64,000 bases of DNA, taken from contig JBIOIY010000002.1 of assembly GCA_044450345.1 (NCBI GenBank), forward strand, positions 128,001 to 192,000, in the 5' to 3' direction. Positions 51,219 through 64,000 of the stretch are shown here, in pieces; within the stretch, counting starts at the first letter, position 1; each line of letters begins with the position of its first letter. The notes beneath the pieces were generated by a model, which ran no database searches, was not told where the DNA came from, and saw only the letters and a list, made by a program, of their open reading frames with translations. Made by a program: the position numbers and the translations under genes. The DNA comes from Thermodesulfovibrionales bacterium. GTDB lineage: Bacteria > Nitrospirota > Thermodesulfovibrionia > Thermodesulfovibrionales > UBA6898.

Positions 51219-51755
51219 ATGACGAAATGGAATATCGACCCTGATCATTCGGTTGCAAGCTTTGCGGTACGGCATTTGATGATTACAAACATCCGCGGGA
51301 CAGTGACCGGGGTCACCGGCACAATACTCTTCGACCCCGCTGCGTTAGAGAACTCTTCCGTCGAGGCGTCGCTCCCTTTGGCAGGCCTATCGACCGGCAA
51401 CAAGAAACGCGATGAACACCTAATGTCTGCCGACTTTTTCGACGTCGGGCGTTTCCCTACAATAACCTTCAGGAGCACAAAGGTGGAAAAAACCGGCATC
51501 AACCGCGGCAAGATCACAGGGGACCTCACGCTGCACGGCGTCACCCGTTCTGTCACTATGGAGGCGGAATACTTCGGCCCGATAAAGAGCCCGGTTGATC
51601 TCGGCGGGGAGACGACCATGGGGTTCGCTGCGTCGGTTACCATCAACCGCGAAGACTTCGAGATTATGTGGAACCTCCCCTTTGATAACGGAAACCTGGT
51701 GGTTGGCAAAGACGTCGATATCACCCTCGACATAGAGGCTGATTTTGCGGAATGA
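51219..51755 (+). CDS. YceI-family polyisoprenoid-binding protein
   Basis: WNIDPDHS, RDEHL...DFFD...FPTITF, GDLTLHGVT. Confidence 0.92.
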   Translation: MTKWNIDPDHSVASFAVRHLMITNIRGTVTGVTGTILFDPAALENSSVEASLPLAGLSTGNKKRDEHLMSADFFDVGRFPTITFRSTKVEKTGINRGKITGDLTLHGVTRSVTMEAEYFGPIKSPVDLGGETTMGFAASVTINREDFEIMWNLPFDNGNLVVGKDVDITLDIEADFAE

Positions 51756-51853
51756 AAAAGTAACTCGCGCAGGACGTTTACAGACGCGAAGCAACCATCG
51801 ACGCGCATTCTAGGGCATGCTGATTACGAAATATTTACTATCCTAATATTCAT

Positions 51854-53032
51854 ATGGCCACTCCTGACACAAACTGGATTATGGTCCGTGATATTATGGT
51901 CGAATTTGCGGAGAAGACCGGACTCTCTTCGGCAGGATTATCACAGGAGCGTTACCTATGGACCGATGCCTTTGCGGTATGCAACTTCCTCGGACTTCAT
52001 CGTAAAACCGGCGATGAGCAGTACAGACATTTGGCCCGGCTCCTTGTCGATCAGGTGCATGCCGTATTGGGCCGGCACCGCAGAGATGACGAACGAACCG
52101 GCTGGATAAGCGGCCTCAGCGACGAGGAAGGCCGGAGACATCCCACAAAGGGCGGACTCAGGATCGGGAAGAAGATGAGAGAGAGGGGACCGGCCGAACC
52201 CTTCGACGAGCGTTTGGAATGGGACCGGGACGGGCAGTACTTCCATTACCTGACGCAGTGGATGCACGCCGTCGATAGTGTGAGTAGAGTTATTGGGGAC
52301 CCGACCTATAGCAGGTGGGCATTAGAACTTGCAAAGGTGGCACATGCGAGGTTTACCTACGCACCGCGTGAGGCGAAAGAGAAACGTCTCTACTGGAAGA
52401 TGAGTATAGACCTCACATATCCTCTCGTATCATCCATGGGACATCACGATCCCCTTGAAGGACTCATTACTTACAGCGAGCTTCAGGCGACTGCGGGAAA
52501 ATTGTCAGGACAATCACCGTCGCGGGAACTCAGCAGAGAGATCGCGGACATGGTCGCGATTTGTGAAGGTAAAGACTGGGCAACCGACGACCCCCTCGGC
52601 ATTGGCGGTCTCCTGATCGGCGCCTACAGGATGACACCGCTGATCCTTGCAGGCGGCTTCCCGCGCCCTGACCTCTTTGAGGTTGTATTGGAAGATTCCC
52701 TGACGGGTTTAGAATCCTTTGATAGACAATCTCTACTAGAGCTGCCCGCCGATTATCGGCTGGCATTTCGGGAGCTTGGACTGTCCATCGGATTGCAGGC
52801 CATTCAGAAACTGCAGGGTTTGGTCCGCCAGTATCCGGACGTTTTCAGAAAGCCTTCCGTTCATTCTCTCATCAAGAGCTTCGAGCGATACGCCAGACTG
52901 AGTAAGGCGATCAATGCATTTTGGCTTGAGGATAAAAACCGGGAATCCCCCGCCTGGTCGGAGCATGGAAATATAAATATGGTGATGCTGGCAACCAGCC
53001 TGGCACCTGATGGGTATCTTTCGCTTCAATGA
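51854..53032 (+). CDS. uncharacterised protein
   Basis: 392-aa ORF with motif-like RYLWTDAFAV, DGQYFHYLT.W, RLAFRELG; function not assignable. Confidence 0.75.
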   Translation: MATPDTNWIMVRDIMVEFAEKTGLSSAGLSQERYLWTDAFAVCNFLGLHRKTGDEQYRHLARLLVDQVHAVLGRHRRDDERTGWISGLSDEEGRRHPTKGGLRIGKKMRERGPAEPFDERLEWDRDGQYFHYLTQWMHAVDSVSRVIGDPTYSRWALELAKVAHARFTYAPREAKEKRLYWKMSIDLTYPLVSSMGHHDPLEGLITYSELQATAGKLSGQSPSRELSREIADMVAICEGKDWATDDPLGIGGLLIGAYRMTPLILAGGFPRPDLFEVVLEDSLTGLESFDRQSLLELPADYRLAFRELGLSIGLQAIQKLQGLVRQYPDVFRKPSVHSLIKSFERYARLSKAINAFWLEDKNRESPAWSEHGNINMVMLATSLAPDGYLSLQ

Positions 53033-53114: not shown

Positions 53115-54020
53115 ATGGAAGAAAACAGGATAGAAATTGATAGGGATCTTTGCAATGGTTGCGGGTTATGCGTCACCGTGTGCCCCACGGGGACCATCTC
53201 ACTCATAGAAGGAAAGGCGGCTGTCTCGGGAGGGGAGTCGATCTCTTGCGGACATTGCGAGGCGGTATGTCCACAGGAGGCGATCCGAGTCACCGCAATT
53301 GATGAAGAGATGTCACGGTATACGACTTTCGTCACGGAGAAACAGTGGCTTCCTCCGGGAAAATACAGTACATCCGGTTTGGTACAGCTTATGGCATCGC
53401 GCCGGTCCTGCCGTTGTTTCACCGACCGGCCCGTAGACCGGGCCATGATCGAAGACCTCGTAAAGATCGGTATCACCGCACCGTCCGGAACCAACAGTCA
53501 GTCCTGGACTTTTACCATTTTGCCGACGAGGAAGGCGGTAAAATCCCTTGCAGGACACATCTCGTCCTATTTCGGGAGATTAAACAATACCGCGGAGAAG
53601 ACCATGCTTCGAATGTTTCTCAAGCTAATAGGCAAAGGAGAACTCGATGCCTATTACCGCGGATATTACCGGAAGGTGAAGGAGGCACTTGAAGAATGGC
53701 ATGGATCAGGCAAAGACCGCCTCTTTCACGGCAGCACGGCTGCCATTCTTATCGGATCTAAGCCGGGAGCAAGCTGTCCGGCTGAGGACGCCTTGCTCGC
53801 AACGCAAAACATCCTGCTTGCCGCCCATAGCATGGGACTCGGCTCTTGTCTCATCGGATATGCCGTAGCAGCAATGAGGAAAGATCCTTCGATCCGGCAG
53901 TCTATCGGCATTCGGCCGGAAGAGGAAATTCACGCGGTTATCGCCCTCGGACATCCCGACGAAGTCTATCAGCGGATAGCCGGGCGCAAGAAAGTGACGC
54001 CGAGATATTTCGAGGGCTGA
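53115..54020 (+). CDS. 4Fe-4S ferredoxin-nitroreductase fusion
   Basis: Two CxxCxxCxxxCP motifs; RRSCR, APSGTNSQ, LGSCLIG. Confidence 0.9.
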   Translation: MEENRIEIDRDLCNGCGLCVTVCPTGTISLIEGKAAVSGGESISCGHCEAVCPQEAIRVTAIDEEMSRYTTFVTEKQWLPPGKYSTSGLVQLMASRRSCRCFTDRPVDRAMIEDLVKIGITAPSGTNSQSWTFTILPTRKAVKSLAGHISSYFGRLNNTAEKTMLRMFLKLIGKGELDAYYRGYYRKVKEALEEWHGSGKDRLFHGSTAAILIGSKPGASCPAEDALLATQNILLAAHSMGLGSCLIGYAVAAMRKDPSIRQSIGIRPEEEIHAVIALGHPDEVYQRIAGRKKVTPRYFEG

Positions 54021-54162: not shown

Positions 54163-55383
54163 TCACGGTATCTCCGGAAATTTGATTACCAACTCTTCCC
54201 CGGTCAGGGCCTCGGTGAGGAATATCTTCAGGTCCTTCTTTTCTTCAGCGGTCAGTCCGAGCGGCTTCAGCGAGGTGTTGCCCTCGCCCCCTCCCCTGTC
54301 GAAGAAATCGATGACCTGATCAAGCGCCTCAAACACGCCGTTATGCATATAGGGGCCGGTCTTTGAGATGTCACGAAGCATCGGAGTCCTGAACGCCTTC
54401 CAGTCTTTCTTGTCCTTCGTGATAAGATATCTTCCGGGGTCTTCTTTGAGGTTGCGGTAATCGTCATAATGGTAGACCTTTGCAACAAACCTCATCGTAG
54501 CAGTCACCATAGGATCGTTTAGCAGCTTCGGGTTTTCCGGCACATTAAGGGCATAGAATTTATCGTCCGTCAGGTCAGCACCGTAATGGCAGTCGATACA
54601 CCTTCCTTTGCCTTTGAAAACCTCCAGGCCCTTCTTCGCATCGGTTGAAAGGGCTTTAACATCGCCCTTCAAAAATAGGTCGAGAGGGGTATTTTTAGAA
54701 ATCAGCGTCCTTTCGAAAGAGGCGATGGCCATCGCGATCCGCTCCCTTGTTACCTCTCCGTTAAAGACCTTCCTGAACTCTCCGGCATATTCCGGCACAG
54801 TCCGTATATGTTCTTCGAGATAGTCGAGGTTTTTGTTCATCTCGAAGGCGGACATCATCGGGAAAAGCGCCTGTTCCTCGAGGGTCTGTGCCCTTCCGTC
54901 ATGGAACAGGTGTTTGCGGTAAGCGATGTTGATAAGCGTCGGTGAATTTCTCCAGTTCTTTGTGGTCGGATAACTGAGGGATATGTCGAGCCCGTCCGTG
55001 AAGGCCAGCTCGGGGTTATGGCATGTGGCGCAGCTCATCGTGCCGTCACCCGAAAGCCTCCTGTCGAAGAACAATTTTTTCCCGAGTTCTATCTTTTCCG
55101 GCGTCTGGGCATTATTCGCAGGAACAGGCACAGACCGAAGAGGCTCAAGGCCTGCCGCATGTGCCGGACATGGGAACATGCCCTGCAGCATCAAGAAAAG
55201 CATGAAAATCGCTATATAGAGTCTGTGTATAAATGCCGTTTGTTCGTCATGCCCGAAGTTCTTGGTCGGGCATCCATGTCCGTATTCCCTGGATTCCCGC
55301 CTTCGCGGGAATGACAGCCTTTTAAAAAAGCGTAGTTTATGCTGAGACTCTAAATGGCGCAGGGCATCTCTATCTCTTCGCAT
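54163..55383 (-). CDS. diheme cytochrome c peroxidase/MauG-superfamily protein (start uncertain because of MITE insertion)
   Basis: LGKKLFFD.RLS, CATCH, RNSPT, CIDCH, FRTP.LR, PYMHNG. Confidence 0.88.
   Translation of the reverse strand: MRRDRDALRHLESQHKLRFFKRLSFPRRRESREYGHGCPTKNFGHDEQTAFIHRLYIAIFMLFLMLQGMFPCPAHAAGLEPLRSVPVPANNAQTPEKIELGKKLFFDRRLSGDGTMSCATCHNPELAFTDGLDISLSYPTTKNWRNSPTLINIAYRKHLFHDGRAQTLEEQALFPMMSAFEMNKNLDYLEEHIRTVPEYAGEFRKVFNGEVTRERIAMAIASFERTLISKNTPLDLFLKGDVKALSTDAKKGLEVFKGKGRCIDCHYGADLTDDKFYALNVPENPKLLNDPMVTATMRFVAKVYHYDDYRNLKEDPGRYLITKDKKDWKAFRTPMLRDISKTGPYMHNGVFEALDQVIDFFDRGGGEGNTSLKPLGLTAEEKKDLKIFLTEALTGEELVIKFPEIP
55219..55350. mobile_element. 132-bp MITE with internal REP-like palindromes, flanked by TA
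   Basis: Imperfect TIRs GAGTCTGTGTATAAA / TTTATGCTGAGACTC, TA on both sides, internal GGATTCCCGCCTTCGCGGGAATGAC. Confidence 0.7.
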
Positions 55384-55960
55384 TTTTCAACTCCTCTTCC
55401 ACGATCTTTTTCAGGTAATCATACGGAACGTCCCCGACGACTTTTCTCCCGTTGATAAAGAAGGTCGGCGTACTGTAAAGATCAAGGGAAAGGGCAAGTT
55501 TTTTGTCCCGCTCTATCAGGGCGGAGTGTCTCATCTTATCAATGCTGTCAGTGAATGTCTTTGTGTCAAGCCCGATCTCTTTTGCATATTTTATCAGGCT
55601 GTCCCTGTCGAGCTTTGGCGAATTCTTCAGGAGCGTGTCGTGCATCTCCCAGTATCTTCCCTGATCGGCAGCCGCCAGGGAGGCCTCTGCCGCAATATGC
55701 GAGTAGTCGCGGTATTTGTACGGGTAGTTTTTGATCACAAGTCTTACCTTGCCTTTAAAGGCATCCATGATCTTCCTGACGGTCGGACCGGCCGCCTTAC
55801 AGTGCGGTCACTGAAAGTCGAGGAACTCTATGATGGTAACGGGCGCATTCGCCGGTCCCAGCTGCGGCGAGTCTGCGAGCGGGACCTCAAAACGTTTTCC
55901 CTCGGCGAAGGCCATCGAAAAAGAGAGCAGGAACAAGACCGTTAAAGCTGTTTTTTTCAT
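55370..55960 (-). CDS. secreted DsbA/thioredoxin-fold selenoprotein (UxxC), 196 aa
   Basis: AAGGAG RBS, signal peptide, GPANAPVTIIEFLDFQ-TGA-PHC (TGA at 55808-55810, codon 51), STPTFFING; hairpin right after the TGA. Confidence 0.85.
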
Positions 55961-55981
55961 CGCGGATTCTCCTTGGCTGAC

Positions 55982-56017
55982 AAAAAAGGCAGGACACCTT
56001 GACGTGTCCCGCCTTTT
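55982..56017 (-). terminator. terminator/attenuator between the fdh operon and the Sec-DsbA gene
   Basis: AAAAGGCGGGACAC/GTGTCCTGCCTTTTTT stem plus T-run. Confidence 0.75.
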
Positions 56018-56030
56018 CAGATTTTACGTC

Positions 56031-57170
56031 TTAGTGCTGCGCTTCGGTCTCAGGGAAGACCCGGAGATACTTCACGCAAACCTTGAACCCGACTATAGAA
56101 AAAGATATGAACGCAAGGGTCACGACGAATTCCATCCAGGTAGGGAAGTAGCTGAACCCGGTTGCGCTCTGGTCCCTGTACACTCCGAAGATAGAGACGT
56201 TGAGCCTGTTTAAAAGCACGCCGGATATGACGAGTACGTCGACGAAAAAGATGCTCTTCACATTCTCTCTCACGTTTTTCATCGAAAGCAATATGATCGG
56301 GCCGACAACGCTTATGCCCATCTCCAAAAGATACATATTCGCCTCCATGCTTCCGTTGAAGGCGGCGGGTATGCCCGGCCCTTTGAAGAGAAGCCAGAGT
56401 TTCCACAGAAAATAGATCACGCCCGTAACCAGGACACCTCGCGCCAGGCCTGAAAGGATGCCGATATCAGCCTTATGCCCGAAAAATTTTTCGCTCAATA
56501 TGGTTTCAAAACTGACCATCGAAAGCCCCATCATGACGGCGGATACGAGGAAAAGTGTCGGCACCTGCGCGTTGTACCAGAACGGCGACAACTTCTTTGC
56601 TGCGATCAGATAAACCGCCCCCAAAGAAGACTGATGAAGTGTCGACAGGAGCACGCCAAAGAGTACGACCGGTACGATAATCTTGTGTATGAAACCTGCT
56701 GACTTCTCCATCCCGAATTTTTCGAAGAACATGGGACTGGACTCCGTAGCGAGCGTGGTGGTATAGAGGACCACGTGTATCGCAACTATCCACATTACTG
56801 AATGTATCTGCCACATAAAAATAGGATGCCAGATGTTCCAGGGCAGGCCGATGTCCAGGGTTATGGCGGTGGCGGCAAGAAGATATCCGAAAAAGGCGTT
56901 CAGGATCGACGCCCTTACAATCGGCTTATACTTTTTCATATTCAATATATATACCGTGCCTGCGATCAGGAACCCCCCGGCAGCCATGGCGACTCCGCCC
57001 AACACGTCCATTCCTATCCAGAGCCCCCACGGGAACCTGTCATTCAGGTTGGTCACCGCACCGAGTCCCTTTATAAGACGCACAACAAGAATCGCCCCTC
57101 CGGCCAGCATGAGGAGAAACATAACAACGGTCGTTGGGGTCCACATCTTTATTTCATGTTCTGATTTCAT
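56031..57170 (-). CDS. HybB/NrfD-family membrane subunit
   Basis: GLGAVTNL...PWGLWIG.D, DIGLPW, LSTLHQSSLG, NRLNV, YFPTWME. Confidence 0.88.
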   Translation of the reverse strand: MKSEHEIKMWTPTTVVMFLLMLAGGAILVVRLIKGLGAVTNLNDRFPWGLWIGMDVLGGVAMAAGGFLIAGTVYILNMKKYKPIVRASILNAFFGYLLAATAITLDIGLPWNIWHPIFMWQIHSVMWIVAIHVVLYTTTLATESSPMFFEKFGMEKSAGFIHKIIVPVVLFGVLLSTLHQSSLGAVYLIAAKKLSPFWYNAQVPTLFLVSAVMMGLSMVSFETILSEKFFGHKADIGILSGLARGVLVTGVIYFLWKLWLLFKGPGIPAAFNGSMEANMYLLEMGISVVGPIILLSMKNVRENVKSIFFVDVLVISGVLLNRLNVSIFGVYRDQSATGFSYFPTWMEFVVTLAFISFSIVGFKVCVKYLRVFPETEAQH

Positions 57171-57172
57171 GC

Positions 57173-57958
57173 CTATTCCTCCTTGTCCATGTTCTTATTG
57201 CGCCGGGTGACCGCCCAGCTGACCGCGCCGGCAGCCAGCACAAGGCCGATCACCGAAGGAATCTTGCTGATGTAAGACCAAGTCAGATCGGGGAACACCT
57301 GTGCCGGTATGGCCATGTTGAATCCAAGCGTTTCAAAAGGTACGCCGGAAATATATATCCAGGAAGTGCCTCCGGCCTCATCCTTGCCGTAAATATGATC
57401 GATATACTTTCCGGGACTCTGCGCCATTCGCTTTTCCGCTTCGGCCCTCACTCCGTCATAGTCTCCATAGTACATCGTCTGGGTAGGACATACCTTGATG
57501 CAGGCCGGGACCAGTCCATTTGCAACCCTGTCGGAACAGAAGGTGCACTTTCTTACCCATGGGACCGCCTTTTCCCACTCGTATTTGGGAACATAGAACG
57601 GGCATGCGACCATACAGTAGCGGCACCCTATGCACCGCCCGAAGTTGTAGGTCACCGGTCCCGCTTCCGTCTTTTTCAGCGCCTCGACCGGGCAGACCGA
57701 AGCGCACGCAGGGTTCTTGCAGTGCAAGCACTGGTTCTTTACAAAACTCCATGCCGGCTCGCCGTTTTGCTCCTGCTCGAAGTATCTGATATTCGTATAG
57801 CACTCTGAATTGAGTTCGGGCGGGTTCGTGAAATTGCCGTTCAGCACGGTCTTCTTGACCGAACGCTCATTCCATTGTTTGCAGGCGACCTGACACCCGC
57901 GACAACCGATACACCTTGTCAGATCCACGAGCACGCCTTTAGGTTTATCATTTGCCAT
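57173..57958 (-). CDS. 4x[4Fe-4S] formate dehydrogenase beta subunit (HybA/FdnH-like)
   Basis: CIGCRGCQVAC, CLHC..PACASVCP, CIGCRYCMVACP, CTFC...PACIKVCP; C-terminal TM helix. Confidence 0.9.
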   Translation of the reverse strand: MANDKPKGVLVDLTRCIGCRGCQVACKQWNERSVKKTVLNGNFTNPPELNSECYTNIRYFEQEQNGEPAWSFVKNQCLHCKNPACASVCPVEALKKTEAGPVTYNFGRCIGCRYCMVACPFYVPKYEWEKAVPWVRKCTFCSDRVANGLVPACIKVCPTQTMYYGDYDGVRAEAEKRMAQSPGKYIDHIYGKDEAGGTSWIYISGVPFETLGFNMAIPAQVFPDLTWSYISKIPSVIGLVLAAGAVSWAVTRRNKNMDKEE

Positions 57959-57967
57959 GTCCGCCTC

Positions 57968-60900
57968 CTATATCTTCTCGACATTGACCATAAAGGCCTT
58001 TGTCTCGGGTATCATAGTGTTTGCATCGCCTATCGTCGGGGTCAGCAGGTTGGAGCTGTCCCCTCCGCTTCCGTCCGCCGGATGCTGCCAGCCAAAGCAC
58101 CATGGAAGTCCCACCTGGTGCACTGTGCTGCCGGCGACTTTAAAAGGCTTAAACCTTTTCGTCACCACAGCTATCGCCCATACTTCGCCGCGCGCGGATG
58201 AGACCTTCACCTTCTGCCCGTTCTTTATCCCCTTTTCCTTTGCCAGTTCCTCGCTCATCTCCACGAACTGCTGGGGCATCATCTCTAAAAGCCAGGGCAC
58301 ATGCCTCGTCATTACGCCCGTCTGCCAGTGTTCGGTCACGCGATAGGTCGTACCCACGAACGGAAAACGGACATCGCAGGAGGCAAATACGTCTTCGACT
58401 ACGCCTTTTTTCCCCTGTTCGTAGAAGATCTTGACCGTAGGGTTGATCCTCTGCTTTGACATGGGATTTTCCTGGAGAGGGCATTCGAGCGCCTCATAAT
58501 GTTCAGGAAATGGGCCCTCTGCAAGGCCCGGACCGAAGATACCCCCCACCCCTGTGGACATCATGATAAACGGATATTTCCCTTTTTCATCAGCCATCGG
58601 GGGCGCAGGGCCGTCAGGGACGTCTCCATCCCATCCCGGAGCAGGCTCTTTTGTCTTCGGGTCAACCTTATTGGGATTCCATTTGATAACAGCTCTCTTG
58701 GGATCCCACGGATTGCCTTTCAGATCTACCGAAGCGCGGTTGTAAAGTATCCTTCTGTTCACCGGCCAGCACCATGCCCATTCCGGATAAAGACCGAGTC
58801 CCGTAGGATCGGTCTTTTTCCTCCTGGCCATCATGTTTATTACCTTGCCCTCCTTCTGCGTATAGCTCTGGGAGAATATCCAGTTGCCGCATGACGTGGT
58901 ACCGTCATCCTGAAGGTGGACGAAGCTGGCGCAGAGCTCGCCCTTCTTGCCGAGCTGCTTAGGAGGAGTGGCTTTTTTATCAAAGACGTCCTCAAGGTAG
59001 TAACCATTGATCTCCTTGGCGACGTTATGGATGTTCACCTCCTTGACCTTTCCGTCGGGCCCCTGTTCTCCATAGTCCCAGGTGGTGTTCATGATAGGTT
59101 CGACAAACTTCCCGCCTTTTTCCTTATACAGTTTTTTCACCCTGAAATAGAGCTCGTTCATAATCTCGGAATCGGGCTTTGATTCACCGATAGGTTTTAT
59201 CGCAACATATCTCCACTGTGCAAGCCTGCTGCTGTTGGTGAGACTGCCCTCTTTCTCTACCGAGGAGCATGCCGGAAGCATAAACACTTCCGTCTGGATC
59301 TCCGTTGGTTTCATGCCCGGGCCTTTCCAGAAGGAGCCCGTCTCGTTATCAAAAAGGTTTACATTGACCATCCATTTGAGTTTTGACAGTGCCTTCCTCA
59401 CCTTCCCGGCATTCGCGCTCGAGCAGGCCGGGTTTTGGCCCCAGGCAAAGAAGCCCTCAAATTTTTCCTTGAACATCTGGTCGAAAAGCATGAGCCATGA
59501 GGCGTTCATGCCTTCATCGAGTTTGGGAAGCCATGAGTATCCGAAGTCGTTTTCAGGTGTAGCATTTTTCCCGTATATTGCCTTCAGATAACTCGTAATA
59601 TACTTCGAACGGTTGCCCCACCAGTTGACGCTCTTTGGGTCCTTTGTTTTCGGCGTAAATTTCTCTATATAGGCCTTGAGGTCCGTAATCGAGGCAGACG
59701 GCACCGCGAGATAACCCGGCAGGCTGTTGAACAGGAGCCCGTTGTCCGTGGACCCCTGCACATTGCTTTCACCCCTTAGCGCGTTGATGCCTCCGCCTGC
59801 GATACCCATGTTCCCCAGAAGTAACTGTATTATCGACATGGCCCTGATGTTTTGTGTACCTATAGTATGCTGTGTCCAGCCCATCGCATAAAGCTCCGTG
59901 CCCGATCTATCGGGCTTTCCCGTTGAACCGAAGGTCTTATATACCTCGATAAGTTTTTCTACCGGTGTCCCTGTTATGGATGAAACCTTTTCGGGGGTGT
60001 AGCGGGCGTATTGTTTCCTGAGTAGCTGAAATACGCAGTTGGGGCTCTTAAGAGTCATGTCTTTCTTCGGTATTTCCTTTTCGTCCATCTGGTACGACCA
60101 TGTCTTTTTGTCGTACTTCCTAGTCTTCGGGTCATACCCTGAAAAGAGGCCGTCAAGCTGCGACGGACCCTTGAACTCCGGATTGATAAGATAGGACGCA
60201 TTTGTATAATTCGCAACATATTCCTTGAAATAGAGGCCCTCATCGATAATGTACTTGATCATTCCGCCTAGGAATGCGATGTCGGTACCTGAGCGCATCG
60301 GGGCATATATATCGGCCTTTGTGGCCGTGTGCGTAAAGCGGGGATCGACGACGATGAGCTTTGCACCTTTGTCCTTTGCCCTCATGACCCACTTCATCGA
60401 TATCGGATGGTTTTCAGCGGGGTTCGCCCCCATCACCAGGATAACATCGGCGTTCTTGATATCAATCCAGTTGTTTGTCATCGCACCGCGACCGAACGAC
60501 TCTGCCAGAGCCGCAACAGTTGCGGAGTGTCATATTCGGGCCTGGTGTTCGATATAGACAAGTCCCCAGGAACGCATGAGTTTCTGAAGCATATAGCATT
60601 CTTCGTTATCAAGTGCAGCACTCCCAACATGGGCGATAGCGTCCGTCCTGTTCACGGCGAATTCCTTTTCGACGTCGACTTCATTGCCGTCGGGCTGCTT
60701 CTCCTTGACCTTCGACTTCGACATGGTTTTGAATGTCTTGTCACGTGTTTCTTTTACCCTCTTTGAGATCTCGTCAAGCGCCCAATCCCATTCCACATCT
60801 TTCCATTCGGCTGCGCCGGGGGCGCGATATTTCGGTTTGGTTAACCGGAGAGGGTTGTTTATAATCTGATATAAAGATGCGCCTTTGGGACATAGGGTCC

Positions 60901-61141
60901 CCTCGTTGGTCGGATGCTCGGGATCTCCCTCGGTGTTGATGACCTTCCCGTCTTTTGTGTAGACCGATATCCCGCAGCCTACCGAGCAGTAAGGGCATAT
61001 GGTCTTCGTCTCCGTTGCTCCCTTGATCTTCAGTTCCATTTCTGCAGCAGCTGCCTCTTGAGGAGCGAGGCCGGAAGCAAGTGTACTGGCAACAGCTGTG
61101 CCGCCTGAAAGCTTTAAAAAATCCCTTCTTGATAAACTCAT
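57968..61141 (-). CDS. fdnG: Tat-exported Mo/W formate dehydrogenase alpha subunit, selenocysteine-containing (1057 aa)
   Basis: SRRDFLK Tat motif, CPYCSVGC, HQARI-TGA-HSATV (TGA 60530-60532) joins two track ORFs in frame; GRGAMTN, LRGESNVQG. Confidence 0.95.
60495..60529 (-). promoter_or_regulatory. candidate bacterial SECIS element of fdnG
   Basis: CGGCTCT-GGC-AGAGTCG hairpin with a G-starting loop about 23 nt after the UGA. Confidence 0.55.
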
Positions 61142-61516
61142 AACTCCACCTCCGGAAGATTATAATGATTAATTAATAAGGTGATTATTTGACGTATTCT
61201 TGAAACAAAGACTAAAAGACACTGGTTTTTAAATGATTCAGTCACCAGACCAGCCGGCAGAAAACTATTAGTTATTATTATCAATTCATTAGCTTTCTCA
61301 TGACATATTCTCTCAATTTATATAACTTGTCAATACAAAAATCACAGGAGCGGGAAGGTCTGTTTAAGTGCGACAAGAAGATCCCTTGCTTAACTCAAAA
61401 GGACATAAGCGGGAAAAAAGGAAGCACCCAAATACTTAAGTCAACACTTAATATAATCTCATCAACATCTTGTTATTTCGTCTTTTTTTTATTATTACTT
61501 TTCCCATGTCCCTTAG

Positions 61517-61683
61517 GGTAGTGGGTCAGTTTACAAAAATAAAGTTATAGGATTGTCATTCCCCGACTTGATCTGGGAATCCAGTATTCTTCTCTGGATA
61601 CTCTCTCCTCGGCGAGTCGCTTGGGGCGACCGGTCAAGCCGAAGCATGACGGCATTTAGAAATATCGCAATTGACACACTACC
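61517..61683. mobile_element. MITE-like element containing REP-like palindromes
   Basis: TIRs GGTAGTGGGTCAGTT / AATTGACACACTACC; internal GTCATTCCCCGACTTGATCTGGGAATCCAG...GCATGAC. Confidence 0.65.
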
Positions 61684-61858
61684 AGGGATTTGAGGGATTC
61701 CGAGGCATCTGGTTAGATCCTGGCTTTCGGGAAGGAGAAATCCAGGGAGTGACGATGAAAAAAAAAGTTCCACCGTTCTTTTTCTTGGGTGAACTTTTTT
61801 TTCGAGACCGTCCGGAGAGCAGAAATATTTTTTTACTTTCTGATAGAATATCGAGGGC

Positions 61859-61934
61859 GCCGAGATAGCTCAGTTGGTAGAGCAGCTGATTCGTAATCAG
61901 CAGGTCGACGGTTCGAATCCGTTTCTCGGCTCCA
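61859..61934 (+). tRNA. tRNA-Thr (CGT)
   Basis: GCCGAGA acceptor, CTGAT-TCGTAA-TCAG anticodon arm, GGTTCGAATCC, 3' CCA; TGaTAGAAT extended -10 upstream. Confidence 0.96.
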
Positions 61935-62736: not shown

Positions 62737-64000
62737 ATGTTTTTAAGAAACGTTAAGATAATTTTTGGGGTGTTTTTAGTATTGTTAGTAGTGCATTCAG
62801 TGGCATATGCTGGTCCTGGTACTCAGATTACTCTTGGTGGAGACATAAGATATCGGGGTTATGATGCAAGCTCTAACCATTCGGACCTACCTGCCCCATC
62901 GATAAATATCCCTTTTGACTTCTACGACGCGAGAATCCGTCTCTCCCTTAATGCGAACGTAACGCCTGACACGTCAGGCTCTGTCAAGGTCAAGATAGAT
63001 AATAAACTTATGCCTTCTACAGCTACTCTTGATGGGAACAACGGGATGGTCCTTGATTTCATTAATCTCCTTCCTGCAGACTCTCATGTCATTAAAATCG
63101 ACGGTATTAACTTCGACCCATCATCGCTGCCCTCAAATTCCCCGGTAACAGGCGGCCTTGCCATTTCAGGTACCAACATCCCCTCAACAACCTTTGATTT
63201 ATGGTACGGGATTACCGGGTCGTTAGGCTGTAAGGGTTCGGCGGTTCTTTCACGGGATTTAATGCAAGCTATAATCCCGCACACGTACTATAACGGCAAA
63301 TCGTACGATCTGCGGTTATCCATCGATTCAAATCACAACTTTCAAGTCATTTCTCATCTGAATTCATATGCCAAAGCTGGCCTGACTACCTCCAATTTTG
63401 CCTACCACGCCGCCGATGGCGACTATTTTACCGCTGCGAACGCGTCATACTTAGGCAAATCCTATTATTTCGAGGCTAAGTATAACCCACTGAAGGTTGG
63501 ATTCGGTTTCGATACATACAAGTTTGGTTCAGGAAACCCTGCCTCCGTCTCAAATGCCTCCAATTTTGCAGGCGCAACATCTGTAGCAGGACATATTCTT
63601 GATCAAGCGAAAAACTACCATCTCGCGATGTTAGATCTTTCGCTACGTTATACCTCCGATCAGACTTTTTCCTGCGGACAAGGGGGCATCTGGAAAATCG
63701 CTTATAATAGCCCATACAGCATACAATTTACGTTTGATGGCTGCAACGGACTATTTCAGAACACGACGGTTTACGGACAGTTCTGGCTTGGAACATCCGG
63801 GGCCTGGTATACCGACCATTTCCGCGCTCGGAGTAGTTACTCAACAGGCTCTTACGACATCACCTACAATAACTTGTGGACTGTTGGGACACAATCGGAC
63901 AACTTCTATACGGGAACTATGAGCGGCATGACAACGGGAGTCATTGTGAATGGACCTAATAGTTTATCGGCAAATTTCAAATTCGCTAATGTCAATTTCA
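62737..64000 (+). CDS. secreted beta-rich protein, more than 420 aa, 3'-truncated by window edge
   Basis: Manual translation with no stop to the window end; AAGGGGG RBS; signal peptide MFLRNVKIIFGVFLVLLVVHSVAYA; S/T/G/N/Y-rich. Confidence 0.8.
   Translation, partial: MFLRNVKIIFGVFLVLLVVHSVAYAGPGTQITLGGDIRYRGYDASSNHSDLPAPSINIPFDFYDARIRLSLNANVTPDTSGSVKVKIDNKLMPSTATLDGNNGMVLDFINLLPADSHVIKIDGINFDPSSLPSNSPVTGGLAISGTNIPSTTFDLWYGITGSLGCKGSAVLSRDLMQAIIPHTYYNGKSYDLRLSIDSNHNFQVISHLNSYAKAGLTTSNFAYHAADGDYFTAANASYLGKSYYFEAKYNPLKVGFGFDTYKFGSGNPASVSNASNFAGATSVAGHILDQAKNYHLAMLDLSLRYTSDQTFSCGQGGIWKIAYNSPYSIQFTFDGCNGLFQNTTVYGQFWLGTSGAWYTDHFRARSSYSTGSYDITYNNLWTVGTQSDNFYTGTMSGMTTGVIVNGPNSLSANFKFANVNF

Follow-up and report, generated by a model that had tools for sequence, protein, structure and literature searches.

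A selenocysteine-containing DsbA and an atypical dihaem protein encoded beside formate dehydrogenase in Thermodesulfovibrionales: a candidate factor for the redox switch of the enzyme

Formate dehydrogenases (FDHs) that depend on metals are prime catalysts of CO2 reduction, and what chiefly hinders their practical use is their sensitivity to oxygen. Here we describe a pair of genes that stands directly downstream of FDH genes in a window of 64,000 nucleotides from a Thermodesulfovibrionales bacterium (assembly GCA_044450345.1, contig JBIOIY010000002.1, positions 128,001 to 192,000). The first gene encodes an exported DsbA-like protein with selenocysteine (Sec) in its active site, hereafter Sec-DsbA, and the second a dihaem protein of the CCP/MauG family. 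The pair is kept together in public genomes, mostly next to fdh genes, and the FDH alpha subunits (FdnG) of genomes that carry it retain two cysteines which in a known enzyme form an allosteric disulfide. The reading we prefer, to which we would give a probability of about 40%, is that peroxide oxidises Sec-DsbA by way of the dihaem enzyme and that Sec-DsbA then closes the FDH switch.

This switch was described for the tungsten (W)/Sec enzyme FdhAB of Desulfovibrio (Nitratidesulfovibrio) vulgaris (DvFdhAB; Oliveira et al. 2024, Nat Chem Biol). According to the accessible portions of PMC11323313, PMC11134731, PMC13397495 and PMC13066108, the enzyme has an allosteric switch in its surface disulfide C845-C872: the oxidised enzyme has a high Michaelis constant (Km) and is stable to O2, the reduced enzyme is fully active and O2-sensitive, and Met405 is conserved in the FdhAB subclass that bears the switch. 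Portions of PMC11323313 also report assays with superoxide dismutase (SOD) and catalase, that reactive oxygen species (ROS) take part in inactivation, and that thiols fail in vitro to rescue the enzyme once it is irreversibly inactivated in the W-OO-SeCys form. Those portions of the four papers name no cellular factor by which the disulfide is set or reset, and our full-text literature search returned no paper on a module of DsbA, peroxidase and FDH.

Five genes lie in a row on the minus strand. The gene fdnG (57968-61141) encodes a 1057-residue molybdenum/tungsten-bis(pyranopterin guanine dinucleotide) (Mo/W-bisPGD) formate dehydrogenase alpha subunit, which matches TIGR01553 over its full length (1396 bits, cut-off 814) and contains PF04879, PF00384, PF01568 and TAT_signal according to Pfam. 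Its single in-frame TGA (60530-60532) corresponds to U204, and with this Sec metal ligand and a twin-arginine translocation (Tat) signal the protein has the characters of a formate dehydrogenase-N alpha subunit. Around the codon a selenocysteine insertion sequence (SECIS)-like element was found (60477-60535, minus strand; Rfam SECIS_3, 34.1 bits, E 1.1e-4), short of the gathering score of 63. The nearest PDB entries are 1H0H and 6SDR, the W/Sec enzymes of D. gigas and D. vulgaris (phmmer E = 0). Downstream of fdnG come a HybA/FdnH/HmcB-like electron-transfer subunit with four 4Fe-4S clusters (57173-57958; Fer4_11), which scores 259 bits with HmcB, 214 with HybA and 166 with FDH-beta, each under its cut-off, and an NrfD/HybB/HmcC-like integral membrane subunit (56031-57170; PF03916, 4.1e-18; PRK10881, 271 bits, under cut-off), presumed to be the quinone-interacting anchor. 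The row ends with Sec-DsbA (55370-55960; 196 residues) and the dihaem gene (54163-55383). A preliminary description, made from the letters of the window, had given this five-gene order, a TGA at the first CxxC position of DsbA, and a DsbA stop that overlaps or abuts the dihaem gene; all three were recovered.

Sec-DsbA starts with a type I signal peptide, MKKTALTVLFLLSFSMAFA, which ends AFA before E and has no lipobox cysteine, and its active site reads F-Q-U-P-H-C, with the TGA at 55808-55810 as Sec51. Two Pfam domains span the TGA, Thioredoxin_4 (PF13462, 3.4e-28; 99.3 bits, threshold 23.2) and DSBA (PF01323, 5.2e-18; 66 bits, threshold 25.6), and the Thr/Val-cisPro loop of the DsbA-like family is present ('STPTFF'). 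The nearest PDB matches were 3GYK, BdbD and ScsC. The protein falls outside NF041057 (Rcas_1661 thioredoxin-like (seleno)lipoprotein, 'DsbG-like'), where it scores 92.9 bits and 190 are needed. Among 41 related genomes there were 23 DsbA matches of at least 52% identity, 22 with exactly one TGA and one cut by a contig start; the TGA holds the first active-site position in all 21 orthologues extracted, invariably as [F/Y]-Q-U-P-H-C. From public assemblies, taken at one genome per species, 77 orthologous loci were collected, of which 73 read U-P-H-C and one U-A-H-C, the remaining three being cut by contig ends; protein identity is 50-86% on both sides of the TGA (74 loci). An order-wide search for DsbA gave an in-frame TGA in 111 of the 114 matches listed. 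In three distant homologues from the public assemblies (39-47% identity) the motif is C-P-F-C, and both neighbour genes are missing. One genome contains a tandem pair of Sec-DsbA copies with one TGA each (G234:C1:24476-25792).

Downstream of the dsbA UGA lies a SECIS-like hairpin of 7 bp (55779-55795, minus strand), which has the apical loop G-U-C and starts 15 nt after the U of the codon. Across the alignment 91.2% of the cells of this helix (nt 16-32 after the UGA) are paired, against 21-60% in slid registers, and the loop is kept as G-(U/G)-C. Double changes were seen in two of its pairs, one from G-C to A-U and five from C-G to U-A. The helix columns are codon-constrained, the single-sequence fold after the UGA is no better than that of shuffles (z 0.06), and an Rfam search at this codon yielded no SECIS family match. 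We regard the hairpin as a likely SECIS element. The genome encodes tRNA-Sec and selB (382 bits, above cut-off), and the conserved UGA, this machinery and the downstream hairpin together give dsbA the marks of the UxxC DsbA-like selenoproteins ('form 1'). That dsbA is a real Sec gene seems to us nearly certain. Such a protein is not new as such: according to the accessible parts of PMC1794560 and PMC13188914 (the latter 'form 1', PF01323), a 'DsbA-like' UxxC selenoprotein family has been tabulated since 2005-2006.

The dihaem gene follows Sec-DsbA in all of the 74 public loci with at least 400 nt downstream of dsbA, and it also adjoins dsbA in five of five loci of a family in which the pair is unlinked from fdnG. 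In the window its ATG (55381-55383), preceded by GAGGAG, lies within dsbA, giving a 14-nt overlap with the dsbA stop (TAG, 55370-55372). This exact overlap recurs in 10 of the first 20 loci, the window included. An overlapping ATG within the last 35 nt of dsbA is found in 48 of 74, and in 68 of 74 no stop interrupts the dihaem frame as far back as the stop of dsbA. Translational coupling with dsbA would best explain how the dihaem enzyme is made. Single-ORF (open reading frame) fusions of DsbA and the dihaem protein occur at three loci (L203 in G113, L204 in G085 and L205 in G114) and represent at least two events; two of them, from one genus, are clean and have no second signal peptide, and the third, from another family, retains a hydrophobic segment between the domains. 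Gene fusions are classical evidence of proteins that act together, and we think it very probable that DsbA and the dihaem protein do so.

Other genes of both kinds are present in the genome. The housekeeping disulfide genes are a VKOR-DsbA fusion and a DsbD homologue; DsbB gave no match in the assembly, which is 91% complete. The fusion of VKOR and a DsbA-like domain of the Cys type, an ORF of 348 residues (contig C1:36188-37099), is likely the housekeeping disulfide-forming system. A canonical bacterial cytochrome c peroxidase (bCCP; contig C73:9921-10832), 33% identical to the dihaem protein, has the Trp, the distal His and the Met. Since an ordinary bCCP, VKOR-DsbA and DsbD are thus encoded elsewhere, the pair appears to be an extra, specialised system.

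The dihaem protein has two CxxCH haem motifs, C118-H122 and C262-H266. In a PDB sequence search its N-terminal domain was most like Geobacter MacA (E 3e-48), and MbnH (6E1C) was the sole full-length match. For the comparison with bCCPs and MauG we take the residues to have the roles by which they are named (Met or Tyr ligand of the second haem, inter-haem Trp, distal His). The position of the bCCP Met ligand aligns to F360; the Tyr of MbnH aligns to F361, as does Tyr294 of MauG by ungapped offset. Among 70 DsbA-linked orthologues the second-haem Tyr position is occupied by Phe (62), Leu (7) or His (1) and never by Tyr; among the 150 nearest cluster representatives, drawn from 1.8 billion proteins, 138 of the 153 segments that align have Tyr there. 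The inter-haem Trp is present in 12 of 74 DsbA-linked orthologues (48 have His, as does the window protein), against 121 of 145 representatives. At the bCCP distal-His position, judged from the alignment rows of wild-type and variant MacA, all 74 orthologues have Tyr, the His of the MacA 'GHGW' aligning to Y138. All 74 retain both the Gln and the Glu of the peroxide pocket. Thus the window protein has the two CxxCH motifs and the Gln/Glu pair of bCCPs and lacks their Met, Trp and distal His; it scores below the MauG and MbnH cut-offs (TIGR03791, 244 < 443.85 bits; TIGR04039, 210.9 < 362.85 bits) and has an insertion of about 30 residues in its C-domain. The word 'atypical', which the preliminary description had used of this peroxidase, can now be defined as no Met, no Tyr ligand and mostly no bridging Trp. 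An AlphaFold2 model built from a 20-sequence alignment was unusable (mean predicted local distance difference test, pLDDT, 42.8).

Genes of fdh (fdnG and/or the Fe-S subunit) lie upstream on the same strand in 56 of the 62 loci that have at least 2.5 kb upstream of dsbA. They are immediately adjacent in 54; the other two, both of one genus (L058 and L061, in G003 and G007), have 4-5 kb inserted between nrfD and dsbA, with a UbiE-like methyltransferase, an ABC1 kinase-like gene and unknown genes. The membrane subunit of the fdh-linked operons is of the NrfD type in 35 cases and of another type in 21, and the two of the latter that were scanned proved to be cytochrome b561-type. In 15 loci the dihaem gene is followed, at a distance of no more than 100 nt, by a FdhE-like gene, sometimes with moeA after it; the pair thus has structural genes on one side and maturation genes on the other. 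At least three of the six loci without upstream fdh are still near fdh-related genes: L046 has fdhE downstream, L094 fdhD-mobA upstream, and L102 fdhE-like and fdnG-like genes 5 kb downstream of the pair. The family with the unlinked pair, some of whose members have complete genomes, includes a locus (L185) with the order dsbA-ccp-fdhE-moeA. By label the carriers are mostly metagenome-assembled genomes (MAGs) of Nitrospirota/Thermodesulfovibrionales; further ones are Desulfobulbaceae, Desulfuromonadales, Geobacter and other Desulfobacterota MAGs. The preliminary description had proposed a neighbourhood survey in Nitrospirota and Desulfobacterota, and had named rare adjacency of the pair to fdh operons as the outcome that would speak against a common unit; the counts point the opposite way, with the pair next to fdh in two operon types. 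We consider it probable that the pair is dedicated to FDH, and the gene orders would be best explained by one functional unit of five genes, in which a membrane-anchored FdnG-HybA-NrfD enzyme is served by an accessory pair.

When aligned to 6SDR (positions counted from the alignment), the window FdnG has equivalents of M405, C845 and C872, by which it would belong to the redox-switch subclass of DvFdhAB. All 56 FdnG that adjoin the pair have both cysteines. An order-wide survey covered 301 genomes, 179 with an FdnG orthologue and 112 with Sec-DsbA; in one family of the order 43 of 54 genomes have an FdnG orthologue and none of the 54 has Sec-DsbA. Besides four earlier ones, 40 FdnG were added from genomes without a DsbA match, and the de-duplicated set held 107 C-termini. 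Two rows were set apart: L146, whose DsbA is in fragments at the end of a contig, was placed with the pair-bearing genomes, and L164 stayed without a label. Both switch cysteines are present in 66 of 66 unique FdnG from pair-bearing genomes; of the 40 whose genomes gave no Sec-DsbA match, 16 have lost at least one of the two, the residues at the two positions being C/G, C/Y, C/N, C/R, C/A, S/C, S/S, S/A, T/L or G/N. The FdnG of the family with the unlinked pair are intact at both positions in 15 of 15 cases. One genome (G042, locus L167, contig C67) has an S/S FdnG and no DsbA that could be found, and a dihaem remnant of 53 residues persists between cyt b and fdhE (C67 4239-4391); this looks like joint decay of the pair and the switch cysteines. 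The genome from which the window comes has a second FdnG-type FDH (contig C38:21298-26204; 41% identity), which is encoded with an Fe-S subunit and a FdhE-like gene, has no pair and carries Ser and Ala at the switch positions.

Because the pair travels with the switch-bearing FDH subclass and appears to decay with the switch cysteines, it is a concrete and testable candidate for a factor that sets or resets the FDH switch. Whether its target is the allosteric Cys pair of FdnG we judge to be an even question. The proposed link between pair and switch is the new element here, and we put it forward as a testable hypothesis and not as a result; the broad guess of the preliminary description, of peroxide or thiol chemistry beside the Sec/Mo-W enzyme, would, if taken as protection of that enzyme, fit a link to the FdhAB disulfide.

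In the mechanism we prefer, O2 or H2O2 would enter the periplasm and the dihaem enzyme would reduce H2O2 at its intact Gln/Glu haem pocket, drawing the two electrons from the selenol/thiol of DsbA. We propose DsbA as electron donor because it is the only conserved partner and the neighbourhood holds no gene for a cytochrome c donor. DsbA, now in its Se-S form, would then oxidise the surface Cys pair of FdnG, which would lock the enzyme in a low-affinity, O2-resistant resting state, as in DvFdhAB, until anoxia returns; selenocysteine would make both exchanges fast. We hold the direction, peroxide-driven oxidation, only tentatively. The most specific form of the proposal, in which the pair would be a peroxide-fuelled disulfide writer with H2O2 in place of quinone (DsbB/VKOR) for the charging of Sec-DsbA, would close the safety disulfide of a W/Mo enzyme that reduces CO2 or oxidises formate, and would be the physiological operator of the FdhAB switch, is on balance unlikely.

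Several points weigh against this mechanism. As an oxidant a selenenyl-sulfide is in general weaker than a disulfide, so DsbA could instead act as a reductant and open the switch again. Missing from the second haem are the ligands, and for the most part the Trp, on which long-range protein oxidation of the MauG type depends. Both cysteines are kept by 24 of the 40 pair-less FdnG and also by D. vulgaris and D. gigas, so the switch can do without the pair. On an FdnG tree, which was built with both Cys columns unmasked, the Cys state changes at least 8 times, always in pair-less lineages, and the pair state at least 15 times; under phylogenetic control the correlation is not significant (conservative independent-pairs test, median p 0.5), about 6 pairs being usable, of which about 2 go in the expected direction, none in the opposite one and about 4 show no difference. 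'Pair-less' here stands for draft MAGs in which DsbA gave no match at E <= 1e-40, and in MAGs absence is never certain. Finally, a strong hairpin with a T-run separates the fdh genes from dsbA, so separate or much weaker expression is possible.

The alternative that survives best, to which we give a real though minor chance, sees the pair as a local scavenger of peroxide. Haem attachment is a frequent task of thioredoxin-fold proteins encoded next to cytochrome c genes, and Sec-DsbA could be either a CxxCH maturation factor of this sort or the private electron donor of a dihaem protein that works as periplasmic H2O2 reductase, with FdnG left untouched. Its rationale would be that electrons leak from reduced FDH to O2 and that ROS damage the enzyme. 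The invariant peroxidatic Gln/Glu pocket speaks for it, the adjacency and fusions of the pair are equally expected from it, and the part taken by ROS in damage to FdhAB (in the accessible portions of PMC11323313) agrees with it. However, scavenging does not predict that the Cys pair is intact in 66 of 66 FdnG and broken in 16 of 40, nor the joint decay in G042; one would expect a scavenger to retain an electron-entry haem with a Met ligand, and with the gene on contig C73 a canonical bCCP is already at hand.

Improbable, and somewhat more so, is a role in biogenesis or repair, in which Sec-DsbA, with the dihaem enzyme to recharge it, would install the FdnG disulfide once after Tat export as a structural step, or would reduce or repair the oxidised Sec/W-sulfido site or reopen the switch when anoxia returns, and would serve maturation or reactivation and not the protective shut-down. 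Sec favours fast reduction chemistry, the pair sits between the structural genes and fdhE, moeA or fdhD-mobA, and the Cys-pair correlation applies here equally. A peroxidase makes little sense as the partner of a reductase, however, and no source of reductant is co-conserved, DsbD having been met once, 4 kb off, in L085; a further point against it is the failure of thiols to rescue the W-OO-SeCys form in vitro (PMC11323313, in the portions accessible).

We think it quite improbable that the pair has no specific link to FDH and is a general oxidative-folding or peroxide-defence module that hitch-hikes with fdh. The 6 of 62 loci without upstream fdh structural genes would suit such a module, as would the one whole family in which the pair lies far from fdnG. 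Yet adjacency spans two labelled phyla and two operon architectures, even unlinked pairs adjoin fdhE, moeA or fdhD, and for general tasks the genome has VKOR-DsbA and bCCP genes at other places. That the dsbA TGA is a true stop, leaving a pseudogene or two short ORFs, is hardly credible: beyond the codon itself only the missing Rfam match favours it, whereas Pfam domains span the codon, the TGA is conserved in 74 loci with similar protein on both sides, the hairpin is conserved and the genome has the Sec machinery.

Comparison with described systems helps to place the pair. The window FdnG is a close homologue of the DvFdhAB catalytic subunit, with Sec and the equivalents of M405, C845 and C872; unlike DvFdhAB, the window enzyme would be membrane-anchored via HybA and NrfD and has Sec-DsbA and dihaem genes in its operon. 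The window Sec-DsbA resembles the UxxC DsbA-like family of Zhang and Gladyshev in its exported DsbA fold, its Sec in the first position and PF01323, but where the accessible parts of the UxxC surveys (PMC1794560, PMC13188914) give neither function nor partners, what is seen here is a constant dihaem partner, with fusions, in an fdh setting. With MauG and MbnH/BthA (3L4M, 6E1C, 6NX0) the dihaem protein shares the CCP_MauG fold, the PYMH(N/D)G motif, an adjoining partner gene and the absence of a distal His on the peroxide haem; unlike them it lacks the Tyr ligand, its orthologues have mostly lost the Trp, and its equivalog scores lie below the cut-offs. With bCCPs (MacA/CcpA 4AAL/3HQ6, Paracoccus 2C1U, Pseudomonas 1EB7) it shares the N-terminal peroxidatic domain and the Gln/Glu pocket, and it differs from them by Phe for the Met ligand, Tyr for the distal His, the C-domain insertion and the absence of a cytochrome or cupredoxin donor gene nearby. 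In yeast Orp1/Gpx3-Yap1 and in peroxiredoxin relays a peroxide-reactive protein passes oxidation to a specific target disulfide, and DsbA needs a dedicated re-oxidant (DsbB/VKOR). Unlike in these thiol relays and DsbB/VKOR systems, the re-oxidant proposed here is a haem peroxidase and not a membrane protein linked to quinone, and the relay a periplasmic selenoprotein of anaerobes.

Should the preferred mechanism be true, it would give a first function to a selenoprotein family that has been an orphan for some 20 years, and it would be the first pathway of DsbA oxidation driven by a haem peroxidase, situated in the periplasm of anaerobes, which could then form a specific disulfide only when peroxide appears. 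The dihaem protein would define a new MauG/bCCP branch without either of the known second-haem ligands. If the link to the switch is wrong, the pair would still be an unusually tight two-protein periplasmic unit of peroxide and thiol chemistry.

The hairpin between the third and fourth genes (55983-56018, minus strand) has a G+C-rich stem of 15 bp between an A-run and a U-run (-28.7 kcal/mol, z -4.0; 0 of 200 shuffles fold equally well). From the nrfD stop onwards the order is hairpin, UUUUUU, AAGGAG and the dsbA ATG, the Shine-Dalgarno sequence AAGGAG being read from the sequence at 55969-55974 (minus strand). The spacing of about 20 bp from terminator to DsbA start, noted in the preliminary description, corresponds to about 20 nt from the T-run to the ATG. 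With its G+C-rich stem and U-run the hairpin has the sequence features of an intrinsic terminator or attenuator. A hairpin of -18 kcal/mol or stronger precedes dsbA in 39 of the 56 orthologous loci compared and occurs in 4 of 56 coding controls; a T-rich tail follows in just 11 of 56. We read the hairpin as a conserved intercistronic element that may tune expression; in the window its probable effect is a weaker expression of the pair than of the structural genes, and not isolation of the pair. A simple promoter scan, which is weak evidence, found no sigma-70-like site on the minus strand from dsbA to 58563 and two such sites upstream of fdnG (61274-61306, minus strand); the terminator scan run beside it missed the hairpin at 55983-56018. 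The Rfam matches to sRNAs near 55254-55336 and 55933-56015 were weak and at the level of chance.

The pre-signal N-terminus of the dihaem gene contains, in frame, a double-hairpin repeat (55245-55316, minus strand) that resembles repetitive extragenic palindromes (REP). The core TTCCCGC-N4-GCGGGAA has 6 copies in the genome, on contigs C4, C11, C45 and C76, the copy on C45 being near-identical. The same in-frame insertion occurs in a locus of the same genus (L018), other repeat types occupy this place in L019, L021 and L031, and 15 of 19 long dihaem N-termini stay open to the dsbA stop. Since the frame usually stays open despite the insertions and the ATG is conserved, translation seems to start at the overlapping ATG, an alternative internal start being M61 (55201-55203, minus strand). 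An artefact of reading through the repeat was considered for the start at 55383 and rejected, given the conserved ATG and the in-frame insertions.

Beyond the dihaem gene, three genes are on the plus strand: a ferredoxin-nitroreductase fusion gene (53115-54020), an ORF of 392 residues without Pfam or NCBIfam match (51854-53032) and a YceI-like gene (51219-51755; PF04264, 1.8e-50). The first two stand between the dihaem and YceI genes, which abut in relatives. An ORF of 187 residues on the minus strand (51245-51808), seemingly conserved downstream of the dihaem gene, was rejected as a member of the unit, being an antisense shadow of the YceI-like gene. On the other side, an open-ended ORF of 421 residues (62737-63999, plus strand) has no Pfam or NCBIfam match. 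Between it and fdnG lie a stretch of 717 nt with no assigned gene (61142-61858) and, just beyond this gap, a tRNA-Thr(CGT) gene (61859-61934, plus strand).

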